This document shows, in pieces, positions 21,568 through 23,605 of a stretch of DNA of 23,605 nt. The stretch spans positions 1 through 23,605 of the forward strand of contig JBHLLG010000042.1 in NCBI GenBank assembly GCA_048885925.1, given 5' to 3'. This DNA comes from Candidatus Hermodarchaeota archaeon. GTDB lineage: Archaea; Asgardarchaeota; Lokiarchaeia; Sigyniarchaeales; SOKP01. Numbering within the stretch: the stretch's first letter is position 1; every line of letters begins with the position of its first letter. The notes beneath the pieces were generated by a model. It did no database searches. It saw nothing but the letters and a program-made list of their open reading frames with translations, and had not been told where the DNA came from. Position numbers and translations under genes: made by a program.

Positions 21568-21960
21568 TTATTCAAAATTAAATTCTTGATTTAAACTAGC
21601 TAATTGCCTCTCAAATTCTTCTTTTAATAAAGTATAATATGTATATTTTCCCTTTTTCCATCCACGAATTAAACCTACTTTTTCTAATTCGCGGAGATGA
21701 TGAGAAATTGAAGGTTGAGATTTATCAAACATTGCTTCGAACTCACACACACAACGATCGTTATCCTTTAATGCAGTTAGTATAGCTAAACGTTCTTTAT
21801 TACCTAAAGCACTAATAAATGATGTGAGAGAATCTAGATTTTGATCTGATTTTAATTCTTTTCCTATTTGCTGTAGATCCTCGAAGTATTTATCACCATT
21901 AGTGCAACCATCACATCCACATAATGTCTCCTTTATTTTTTTCTTTCTTTCTAACTTCAT
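21568..21960 (-). CDS. arsR: ArsR/SmtB-family metalloregulator (alpha3 CxC site)
   Basis: ALGNKERLAIL, RCVCEF, SQPSISHHLRELEKVGLI, KKGKYTYY; extra N-terminal CGCDGC. Confidence 0.9.
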   Translation of the reverse strand: MKLERKKKIKETLCGCDGCTNGDKYFEDLQQIGKELKSDQNLDSLTSFISALGNKERLAILTALKDNDRCVCEFEAMFDKSQPSISHHLRELEKVGLIRGWKKGKYTYYTLLKEEFERQLASLNQEFNFE

Positions 21961-22044
21961 TTAAATATCATTGTATTTTTCTGTTGTTATTAATATAGAA
22001 ATCATTAAATTATAAAAATTTTATTCATATTTATAAACCTAGAT

Positions 22045-22068
22045 TCACATCGAAATATTTTTATATGA
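22045..22068. promoter_or_regulatory. Putative ArsR operator overlapping a BRE/TATA-like promoter
   Basis: TCACATCGAAAT|ATTTTTATATGA, 9 of 12 positions symmetric; contains CGAAA...TTTATAT. Confidence 0.6.
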
Positions 22069-22151
22069 GCTATTCTATTAATATTTTAACCTATTAAAAA
22101 ATGAAAATATTAAATCTAAAAAGTTAAAAAAAATTCTAAGAGGGATAATAT

Positions 22152-22292
22152 ATGAAAAAGTCAAATATGAAAGATGCTAAAAGGGAGAATTCACTCAAGA
22201 TCGATACAGAATTTCGTGGTTCTGCATGTTGTGGAGGTTCTAAAAATCAACTTGATAATAAAAACAAAACAGAAAAGAAGATTAATAATTGA
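22152..22292 (+). CDS. Small 46-aa peptide with CCGG motif (not in ORF track)
   Basis: MKKSNMKDAKRENSLKIDTEFRGSACCGGSKNQLDNKNKTEKKINN*; purine-rich AGAGGGA upstream; lies between the operator and the methyltransferase fusion. Confidence 0.6.
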   Translation: MKKSNMKDAKRENSLKIDTEFRGSACCGGSKNQLDNKNKTEKKINN

Positions 22293-22362
22293 ATTTTAGA
22301 GTTATTATAAAATAATAAAAATTGAGTTTTAAAACTTTAATTTAAAAGAATTTCGTGGGTTT

Positions 22363-23605
22363 ATGGCAGTTACTTATATGCGAAAGTTAGAGGAAGAACC
22401 AGAATCATACGATTCTAAATTCACTGCTTTAACAAAAGGAGTAAATGTTGAAGTTCAGAATTGGGTTATTGATAAAATTAATACTTCGGAATCTATATTA
22501 GAAATTGGGTGTGGTACTGGAGCGCTTGCTACAAAAATGGCATTAAAAGGAAATAATGTCATAGCTATTGATAAAAATGTTCAAATGATTAATTATGCTA
22601 TGAAAAATTTTCCATCTGATTTATCTAGTGGAAAGCTTCTATATCAAATAGGATCATTTACTCTTTTACCTGTAAAAGAACATTCTCAAGATGTTGTAGT
22701 AAGTACATTTATGTTATCAGAACTTCGTCCTTTAGAACAACAAATTTTTCTTAGAAATGTATGGAAAGTATTAAAACCCAATGGACGCGTGATTTTGGCA
22801 GCTGAATTTGTACCATCCGGATTTTGGAAATTGCCCTTTCTACTTAAGAGATGGCGATATAGAAAGAAGTTAAGACGTTTACGCATAAGGAGTACTCATT
22901 TAATAAAATGGTTTTTTAACTATTTAGATCCTATAGGGTTCAAAATCTCTAACCAAAAGATATGGAAACATGGTTCCATCCAAACAATAGAGCTACAAAA
23001 AATTGATGATATTGCAGGAAATGAAGCCGGCTATTATAGACCAAAAATAAAAAAGTTTAAGGGTTTACGATCTCAATTAAGAATTTATCGCTGTATTTTC
23101 ACTGGACAAATCGATAGAGTACCAATTGAACCAGGAATTTATCAATCTGGAAATCCCAATGAAAAATCGCCAATTATTGTAACTGCTAATTATGATTTTA
23201 CATATATTAAGGTTATGCGCGATCTTAAAGGAATTGATGCTTGGATATTATGTGTAGATTCAAATGGCATAAATGTGTGGTGTGCTGCTCGTGGTGATGA
23301 TTTTGGAAACATGCAACTTCTTGAGGCAGTAGAAGCTACAGGAATAAGGAATATAACTGAAAAAAAGACATTACTTCTACCACAACTCTCAGCTGGGGGT
23401 GTAGCAATACCTGAACTTCCTATTAATTCGGAAAAGTTCCCATTTAGAGTTAAATTTGGACCAGTTTGGTCAAAACATCTTCCTAAGTTTCTTGAAGATA
23501 AACCAGCTAAAAAGCCTGAAAAAATGAGGTTAGCTAAATTTACATTATTCCATCGAATTCGCGCAGTAATAACTCATACTACATTTTTATTTCGAAAATT
23601 ATTCG
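22363..23605 (+). CDS. Class I SAM methyltransferase fused to an HgcA-like corrinoid-binding domain (3'-truncated by the window; not in ORF track)
   Basis: Open for 414 codons to the edge; ILEIGCGTG, IAID, DVVVSTFMLSE, LKPNG; then PIEPGIY..GNP..SPIIVTANY, DSNGINVWCAARG (Cys307 at 23281), PQLSAGGV, FRVKFGPV, MRLAKF. Confidence 0.9.
   Translation, partial: MAVTYMRKLEEEPESYDSKFTALTKGVNVEVQNWVIDKINTSESILEIGCGTGALATKMALKGNNVIAIDKNVQMINYAMKNFPSDLSSGKLLYQIGSFTLLPVKEHSQDVVVSTFMLSELRPLEQQIFLRNVWKVLKPNGRVILAAEFVPSGFWKLPFLLKRWRYRKKLRRLRIRSTHLIKWFFNYLDPIGFKISNQKIWKHGSIQTIELQKIDDIAGNEAGYYRPKIKKFKGLRSQLRIYRCIFTGQIDRVPIEPGIYQSGNPNEKSPIIVTANYDFTYIKVMRDLKGIDAWILCVDSNGINVWCAARGDDFGNMQLLEAVEATGIRNITEKKTLLLPQLSAGGVAIPELPINSEKFPFRVKFGPVWSKHLPKFLEDKPAKKPEKMRLAKFTLFHRIRAVITHTTFLFRKLF

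Follow-up and report, generated by a model that had tools for sequence, protein, structure and literature searches.

The locus described here lies at one end of a 23,605-nucleotide stretch of DNA (hereafter the window), which is one whole contig (JBHLLG010000042.1) of the assembly of a Candidatus Hermodarchaeota archaeon (GCA_048885925.1; 3.9 Mb, 95% complete). It holds an arsR gene, a dyad that is a predicted operator, a small open reading frame (ORF) encoding a Cys-Cys peptide, and a gene that fuses a methyltransferase to an HgcA-like corrinoid domain. An earlier interpretation made from the letters alone (the sequence-only reading) had proposed these four elements as an ArsR-controlled module for cobalamin-dependent metal(loid) detoxification or methylation, and all four were present where it had placed them:

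21568-21960, minus strand: arsR, a 130-residue ORF whose product scores above the cut-offs of HTH_5 and NF033788
22007-22034, no strand assigned: conserved AT-rich block between arsR and the operator, near-identical across nine genus-level spacers
22045-22068, plus strand: predicted operator, a 24-nucleotide imperfect dyad TCACATCGAAATATTTTTATATGA, 29.2 bits on the position matrix
22152-22292, plus strand: small Cys-Cys ORF of 46 codons, with GAGGG 8 nucleotides ahead of the ATG
22208-22219, plus strand: 12-nucleotide direct repeat, copy 1, within the small ORF
22347-22358, plus strand: 12-nucleotide direct repeat, copy 2, ending 4 nucleotides before the fusion start codon
22363-23605, plus strand: methyltransferase/HgcA-like fusion gene, open at the contig end, with 414 of about 552 residues encoded
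23272-23295, plus strand: cap-helix motif NVWCAARG within the fusion, with the Cys codon at 23281-23283

On balance, the whole is read here as a metal(loid)-responsive regulatory module with a methylating fusion enzyme. The spacer between arsR and the fusion gene measures 402 nucleotides. Together with the small ORF, it was covered by public contigs from four runs of four studies with 0-3 differences, one contig piece runs across 22008-22609, and the fusion reading frame goes on beyond 23605 in contigs from other samples, with one public contig reaching 1277 nucleotides past this position; this coverage indicates that the arrangement is real and that the gene is cut solely by assembly. The 3' third of the fusion and all downstream DNA are absent from the window, which ends there with the contig. 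When this genome was searched for the 3' part of the fusion and for an HgcB-like gene, just unrelated ferredoxins and a CdhD-like gene were returned; what follows of the operon is missing from the assembly. An Rfam scan of positions 21900-22420, at E up to 1, matched no family, and thus no riboswitch explanation was found. The Asgard host assumed by the sequence-only reading fits, the relatives being named Promethearchaeota, Hod-, Hermod-, Thor-, Heimdall- and Odinarchaeota.

Comparison with curated models showed that the arsR product is a winged-helix member of the ArsR/SmtB family, with 53.1 bits against Pfam HTH_5 (cut-off 22) and 68.9 bits against NCBIfam ArsR/SmtB NF033788 (cut-off 55). 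The CVC sensing site that had been claimed for it was confirmed at residues 70-72, where it aligns with the CVC of the CadC-like solved protein 9t6r, and it was unchanged in 28 of 28 aligned ArsR orthologues and paralogues from related loci. The protein also has an N-terminal C-x-C-x-x-C at residues 14-19. Three N-terminal cysteines, mostly in this pattern, were found in 22 of the 28 ArsRs and are encoded by every arsR that adjoins the fusion or an acr3-fusion operon; the other six are the paralogues L032-L037, with one N-terminal cysteine each, five of which lie beside acr3 alone. The third alpha3 cysteine of E. coli R773 ArsR (Cys37) is missing from the window protein. The predicted metal site is of a thiolate-rich type, alpha3 plus N-terminal arm. 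An S-adenosylhomocysteine (SAH) sensor of the SahR type was considered as well and rejected, because the protein, at 130 residues, is too short and is without the methyltransferase-like effector domain of SahR.

The palindrome that had been proposed as the operator is real, although it is imperfect (11 of 14 positions complementary) and not above chance when taken alone, being one among 12 inverted repeats of the AT-rich spacer; its significance comes from comparison with relatives and not from the window. Among nine genus-level copies of the locus, with ArsR identities of 71-78% and DNA identities of 78-82%, the 24-mer was identical in six, representing five distinct loci (L008 and L029 have the same sequence), and differed at one or two positions in the other three. 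The consensus is TCAnATCGAwAwnTwTwwATnTGA. A position matrix, seeded with the window site and refined on arsR upstream regions (L032, with 102 nucleotides of upstream region only, was excluded), found a copy in 27 of 27 regions, amounting to 19 distinct sites of 19.1-30.4 bits, as compared with a mean of replicate medians of 10.1 bits and a maximum of 13.3 when the same seed-and-refine procedure was applied to random AT-rich genome segments. Across the 7,786,398 positions of the genome scan, the window site scored 29.2 bits and the runner-up 19.1, and the window operator was the sole site of at least 21 bits in the 3.9-Mb genome. A pattern search of the genome gave three matches, against one for the reversed control; the two matches other than the window site deviate within the motif, and both stay under 17 bits when scored with the matrix.

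The matrix was also run over the fetched loci (667,644 positions), where all 30 matches of at least 15 bits lay in arsR-side or fusion promoters, and the claim of an operator over a TATA-like box was thereby upheld as a motif specific to these promoters. Two sites outside the training set (L006:5911 and L007:639, each 27.0 bits) stand about 81 nucleotides 5' of the fusion start. The arsR-acr3 pair is 4.6 kb from the fusion in L006 and no arsR is adjacent in L007, which indicates that the site moves together with the fusion operon. In L033-L037, five arsR-acr3 pairs without a fusion, the motif was likewise located between the arsR paralogue and acr3. Since the motif fronts both the fusion and acr3, the fusion operon belongs to a type of ArsR regulon shared with arsenite pumps.

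These scans bear on the alternative that the 24-nucleotide block is a strong core promoter inherited with the locus, with ArsR acting elsewhere or not on the fusion at all. The block does overlap a sequence resembling the B recognition element (BRE; CGAAA) and a T-rich TATA-like box (TATAAA in some loci) of the rightward promoter, and we take its centre to match the archaeal BRE/TATA consensus; in addition, the motif faces the downstream gene in one and the same orientation throughout, and the window dyad has the imperfections given above. A generic promoter would however recur, and a single site of at least 21 bits was present in the genome. The TCAnAT/ATnTGA arms lie outside the BRE and TATA elements, are dyad-symmetric and co-vary in several loci: they form perfect inverted repeats in L027, L030, L010, L031, L006, L024 and L035, with an arm base pair that is C/G in L027 and T/A in L030. 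The motif is also confined to arsR-linked operons and is absent from seven Thor/Hod-type loci that show no arsR. A block that is promoter and nothing else is regarded as improbable on these grounds, and the simplest reading is an operator that would overlap the core promoter and repress by occlusion. Overall, the comparison makes the regulatory half of the proposed mechanism likely. A recognition-helix variant was further seen to track a central operator variant (19 of 19 versus 8 of 8), which is weak evidence because it is essentially one clade split.

The AT-rich block at 22007-22034 is a candidate for the TATA region of the leftward arsR promoter, with a degenerate left operator arm. A degenerate second copy of the left arm was observed at 22022-22035 in the window. 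In a contig of run X10, the spacer of a related strain diverges at 22024 and has two ACATCGAA boxes about 21 nucleotides apart, suggesting that the left-arm core may occur as a direct repeat.

Neighbourhoods were counted over 24 loci from species-representative genomes, and the common gene order was arsR, then (DUF166) acr3, the fusion, an HgcB-like ferredoxin, two small proteins, (arsC) and YdjM, the genes in brackets being present in part of the loci. The arrangement on which the sequence-only reading depended proved to be conserved in relatives: of the 18 loci whose upstream sequence reaches at least 3.7 kb, 13 have a divergent arsR upstream. The partner genes that it had expected were likewise found in relatives: the HgcB-like ferredoxin lies directly 3' of the fusion in 19 of the 24 loci (a contig edge ends three of the other five) and follows it in G003 and G014 too, arsC of the pI258 type lies 3' of the fusion in four, and acr3 lies directly 5' of it in 12, with arsM adjacent in one. 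Through these adjacencies and the operator shared with the five arsR-acr3 pairs, the link to arsenic genes holds in the relatives. Their acr3 scored 277.9 bits (cut-off 282.8), and the arsM of L020 scored 347 bits (cut-off 263).

The HgcB-like ferredoxin has two CX2CX2CX3C motifs, a cysteine 12 residues past the second of them and, in 19 of 19 sequences, CC or CxC at the C-terminus, with an N-terminal SCCS in six of the 19; it scored 52.4 bits against HgcB NF040864 (cut-off 99). Two conserved small proteins are encoded downstream of it in L002-L020 (for example at L010:8111-8431 and L010:8462-8824), for which no Pfam or NCBIfam match was found. One of them, C5, has a core of about 90 residues, a DACAC motif and, in some cases, N-terminal tails rich in CC, and we take it to be reminiscent of ArsD; the other, C3, has about 120 residues and usually ends in QPDVGC. 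A Cys-rich DUF2769 protein of 82-91 residues is encoded on the minus strand beside arsR in L002, L010, L012, L014 (L014:3812-4087) and L024. The DUF166 protein, whose family has selenoprotein members in NCBIfam, comes first in the operon at four loci, and a gelsolin-repeat gene, an Asgard 'eukaryotic signature', lies just 3' of the fusion and ferredoxin in L019, L022 (L022:8816-9688), L023 and L065.

Domain analyses of the fusion protein found both halves of the methyltransferase-corrinoid fusion that had been claimed, with Pfam Methyltransf_11/25 at residues 45-146 and CdhD at residues 239-344. The layout is a CpaM-like class I S-adenosylmethionine (SAM) methyltransferase over about residues 1-212, followed by an HgcA-like corrinoid domain over about residues 235-390, and the window copy breaks off as the first transmembrane helix starts, at about residue 395. 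Full-length relatives (98% identity, 541 residues; 92% identity, 552 residues) both have an additional C-terminal third that is hydrophobic. For the second of these, P0003, the AlphaFold model has a predicted local distance difference test score (pLDDT) of 90.8 and a predicted template modelling score (pTM) of 0.87, with five long C-terminal helices at 395-551 and a helical cap-helix region at 305-310. Its best fold match in the PDB was the HgcAB model 9a0b_A (E 7.8e-13), followed by small class I methyltransferases, and a sequence search of PDB chains returned no HgcA, with corrinoid iron-sulfur protein (CFeSP) large subunits as the closest chains. In 26 of 26 relatives with the fused architecture (21-78% identity), GxGxG, D70 and the N, V, W and C of the cap helix were invariant, and the cap-helix Cys is predicted to be the lower axial ligand of the corrinoid cobalt. 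With clustering at 50%, the fused architecture recurs in about 25 representative clusters of 21-60% identity, some of which add a ferredoxin.

The NCBIfam scores of the fusion were taken on full-length P0003 and stayed below every curated cut-off: 171.5 bits against HgcA NF040863 (cut-off 275; model positions 29-318 of 325 aligned), 170.3 bits against HgcAB-like NF043039 (cut-off 285; aligned to model position 256 of 350) and 136.3 bits against CpaM NF043040 (cut-off 180; model positions 3-215 of 216 aligned). These shortfalls count against the preferred reading. Against ArsM NF008823 the score was 33.8 bits (cut-off 263). ArsM needs a Cys triad, and the fusion's methyltransferase domain has a single Cys, which lies within its GCGTG SAM motif; this domain is not an ArsM.

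The same features were weighed for a true mercury methylase, that is an HgcA with a built-in methyl donor, partnered by HgcB. In its favour, HgcA is the top NCBIfam match for the C-terminal part and the HgcAB model the top fold match; the cap-helix Cys does not vary, and the partner ferredoxin shows all three HgcB sequence features. Nevertheless, the HgcA score falls short of its cut-off, the window motif continues with RG after NVWCAA where the canonical HgcA cap helix, N(V/I)WCA(A/G)GK, ends in GK, and the neighbours are ars genes and not mer genes. Lin et al. placed Asgard sequences in a fused-HgcAB clade, in an alignment whose first 327 columns were trimmed, and reported that the Pyrococcus member of this clade did not methylate Hg; in the accessible part of their paper, a methyltransferase domain is unmentioned (PMC10083202). 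A mercury methylase is therefore judged highly unlikely. For a metal(loid) substrate more broadly, the chances of the catalytic half appear evenly balanced, and arsenic or antimony in particular is put forward tentatively, at somewhat less than even.

Several other fusion forms were observed. P0143, P0145, P0146, P0159 and P0176 are triple fusions of methyltransferase, HgcA-like domain and a C-terminal 2x[4Fe-4S] tail. The genus relative G012 carries, beside a regular fusion copy, a second and distant paralogue (G012:C11:17984-19480; 28% identity), in a 592-residue frame with one internal TAA. The metagenome scan yielded five loci, among them L048 (96% identity), a metagenome contig in which GC-rich, unrelated DNA (L048:1-270) joins the fusion at residue 36; L048 is probably an assembly chimera, and it was kept out of the spacer comparison.

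The peptide ORF claimed between operator and fusion, on the strand of the latter, was present at 22152-22292. Its product of 46 residues is Lys-rich, with a central vicinal Cys-Cys and no hydrophobic segment. A homologue of 46 residues and 82% identity exists in the nearest relative, where the accessions directly precede the 92%-identical fusion; a tblastn search over the loci gave no homologue, and a large protein search returned an identical copy and one 82% relative and nothing else. In L027 and L030, unrelated-looking ORFs of 28 and 27 codons occupy the same place, each with CC and each after GAGG. The operator-to-start distance of the L027 ORF equals that of the fusion in short-spacer loci, and the stop of this ORF overlaps the start of an FMN (flavin mononucleotide) reductase gene by ATGA. 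An FMN-reductase gene between the CC ORF and the fusion was also observed in L064 (G003:C9, 6751-7320) and L065 (G014:C75, 2747-3358), where the inserted gene, of the FMN-reductase family, has a compact Cys motif. Vicinal-Cys tails occur in operon proteins of other clades, namely the HgcB-like ferredoxins and the C5 proteins. The 12-nucleotide direct repeat is exact, with two matches in the window against 0.01 expected; copy 1 encodes EFRG in the small ORF and copy 2 shares its frame with the fusion ATG, and the repeat suggests that a recent duplication or insertion made the present long spacer. In the regulated transcript, the small ORF probably comes first among the cistrons. That it encodes a real soft-metal-binding peptide or carrier is slightly favoured, the alternative being a recent, dispensable insertion.

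Several results weigh against an arsenic-responsive methylation module as the reading of this locus. No acr3 was found in this genome with a protein query and a family model (the assembly being 95% complete), and neither ArsM nor ArsC exceeded the curated cut-offs there, so that an arsR with an arsenite efflux gene, as in an ars operon, was not found in this genome, whereas 21 of 23 genus relatives do have acr3. The window subclade (L008, L025, G003 and G014), which has the same Fumble and SIS flanks as the window, has in its operon, instead of ars genes, flavin/FMN reductases and a cupin, joined in some cases by an EamA transporter or a second methyltransferase; its acr3 lies elsewhere, with an arsR paralogue of its own. 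The orthologous locus of G003, between Fumble and SIS, reads arsR, CC ORF, FMN reductase, fusion, ferredoxin, flavin reductase, methyltransferase and flavin reductase. Seven Thor/Hod-type loci (L016-L019 and L021-L023) have the fusion with neither arsR nor motif in the sequence covered, which comprises at least 3.7 kb upstream in five of them and less than 1 kb in L016 and L019, and a small membrane protein stands where arsR would be. Part of the conservation of the motif could belong to the core promoter (BRE/TATA) and not to a repressor site, and the window dyad itself is imperfect. The small ORF is missing from five of eight distinct genus-level loci, whose 175-nucleotide spacer leaves no room for it, and it evolves fast (82% identity, versus 92% for the fusion). 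Moreover, methylation of As(III) does not chemically need cobalamin. The fusion had been proposed as a possible alternative to ArsM, and this was rejected because the two co-occur: among 40 related genomes, 29 had the fusion, 35 acr3 and 11 an ArsM over the cut-off, and all 11 of the last also carry the fusion.

The sensor itself adds to this list. The closest solved relatives of the window ArsR are the CadC-like proteins 9t6r and 1u2w (E 2.8e-9 to 2.1e-7). Similarly to the window protein, CadC carries N-terminal Cys, and the five-Cys site is as close to this Cd/Pb/Zn sensor as to As(III) sensors; the inducer is therefore not readable from sequence, and a preference for As(III)/Sb(III) versus Cd/Pb/Hg cannot be told from the ArsR sequence alone. 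CadC-type (alpha3N) sensors thus share an aligned CVC and the additional N-terminal Cys with the window protein, and differ from it in low identity and in their genetic partners, which are ars-type genes here and not a Cd/Pb P-type ATPase.

An alternative is that the enzyme methylates a lipid, a thiol or another small molecule and that ArsR reports Cd/Pb/Zn, sulfide or redox stress, or SAH. The neighbours in the window subclade and the Thor/Hod-type loci without arsR speak for such a function, as do the sulfide-, sulfite- and SAH-sensing members of the ArsR family and a weak NCBIfam match to BigR (31 bits, cut-off 155). In the accessible part of the work on strain ND132, its ArsR2 responded to SAH too (10.1101/2022.10.17.512643). 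On the other side, the same operator stands before acr3 genes; most Loki-type loci have acr3, arsC and arsM as flanks of the fusion; vicinal-Cys tails typical of soft-metal handling are found on the ferredoxin, the C5 protein and the small ORFs; and the regulator has no SAH-binding domain in its 130 residues. A substrate other than a metal(loid), under such a sensor, is considered unlikely, and the metal(loid)-responsive module is retained as the preferred reading.

The closest described system is ArsR2-hgcAB of Pseudodesulfovibrio mercurii ND132 (Gionfriddo et al.), in which, according to the accessible text, an ArsR-family regulator with extra cysteines is encoded beside an HgcA/HgcB-type pair, controls it and responds to arsenic and SAH (10.1101/2022.10.17.512643). 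The adjacency of ArsR and hgcAB and a proposed link of this enzyme family to arsenic are thus published for bacteria in that report. As far as it describes the ND132 system, arsR is co-transcribed there and divergent here, and its ArsR2 has Cys47/49/86/88 where the window protein has CVC and an N-terminal CxCxxC; the N-terminal SAM methyltransferase, the sub-cut-off HgcA score, the Asgard host and the conserved operator also set the present locus apart. The families CpaM (NF043040) and HgcAB-like (NF043039) are alike in combining a class I methyltransferase, an HgcA-like membrane protein that holds its corrinoid Cys-on, and a 2x[4Fe-4S] module, whereas here the methyltransferase is fused to the HgcA-like part, the ferredoxin is a separate gene and the scores lie below both cut-offs. 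Canonical HgcA and HgcB (NF040863/NF040864) share the corrinoid-binding domain and its cap-helix Cys, the five C-terminal transmembrane helices and a ferredoxin with an extra Cys and a C-terminal Cys pair, and differ by the extra N-terminal SAM methyltransferase, the variant cap-helix tail and scores that are below the cut-offs here. Classical ars operons (arsR-acr3-arsC, ArsM) are comparable in the CVC ArsR and the divergent operator, with relatives adding acr3, arsC and sometimes arsM; in contrast to these operons, the methyltransferase here has a single Cys and no acr3, arsC or arsM was found in this genome.

The description of the locus as an undescribed system could not be sustained, since NCBIfam already names CpaM and HgcAB-like, as families of putative function, and ArsR control of hgcAB is in print, as far as the accessible text of that report goes (10.1101/2022.10.17.512643). 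A full-text literature search, with supplementary lists of hgcA regulators outside its scope, found no description of this fusion, of CpaM or of the operator. New here are the operator motif, its specificity and its presence before both the fusion and acr3, the Cys pattern of the regulator, the recurrent small Cys-Cys ORFs and the co-occurrence with ArsM.

The order of the genes, their domains and conserved residues, the specificity of the operator and the ars synteny were computed here, and from them we infer DNA binding, the inducer, loading of the corrinoid from SAM and the substrate in the following model. An ArsR dimer with its thiolate-rich sensor would bind the dyad at 22045-22068 and, because the dyad overlaps the BRE/TATA region, would block the TATA-binding protein (TBP) and transcription factor B (TFB) at the rightward promoter. 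Its release would be triggered by a thiophilic ion, As(III) or Sb(III) being the likeliest, and would allow a transcript with the small Cys-Cys ORF first and the fusion gene after it. Past the contig end, judging by the orthologous locus of the closest relative, the transcript would go on to encode an HgcB-like 2x[4Fe-4S] ferredoxin, whose tails are rich in Cys, as well as flavin reductases. The N-terminal domain of the fusion would load the methyl group of SAM onto a corrinoid in the Co(I) state, which the HgcA-like domain would hold Cys-on. Electrons from the ferredoxin and flavin reductases would hold the cobalt reduced, and from there the methyl group would be handed on, at the membrane, to a Cys-bound metal(loid).

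An operator common to the fusion and to arsenite pumps gives a so far vague link to arsenic the form of a defined regulon, in which both the DNA site and the enzyme can be tested, and the operator motif is a simple handle for finding more members of the regulon in Loki-type genomes. The role of HgcA-type proteins and the identity of their methyl donor have been standing questions since 2013, and the enzyme described here has a SAM methyltransferase of its own. A wider proposal, which is speculative and which we regard as rather doubtful, is that this Cys-on corrinoid enzyme, charged by SAM and regulated by ArsR, acts as an anaerobic methylase dedicated to metalloids of the arsenic group and that this was the original job of the HgcA family. 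If so, mercury methylation by canonical HgcAB would be the side reaction of a descendant, the methyl source of HgcA-type corrinoids would be SAM, by way of a CpaM-type domain, and the free Cys-Cys peptides and Cys-rich tails of the ferredoxin would be carriers that present thiol-bound metalloid to the cofactor. If the proposed chemistry is true, Asgard archaea of marine sediments would have a cobalamin-dependent metalloid methylation that surveys based on arsM or canonical hgcA have missed.

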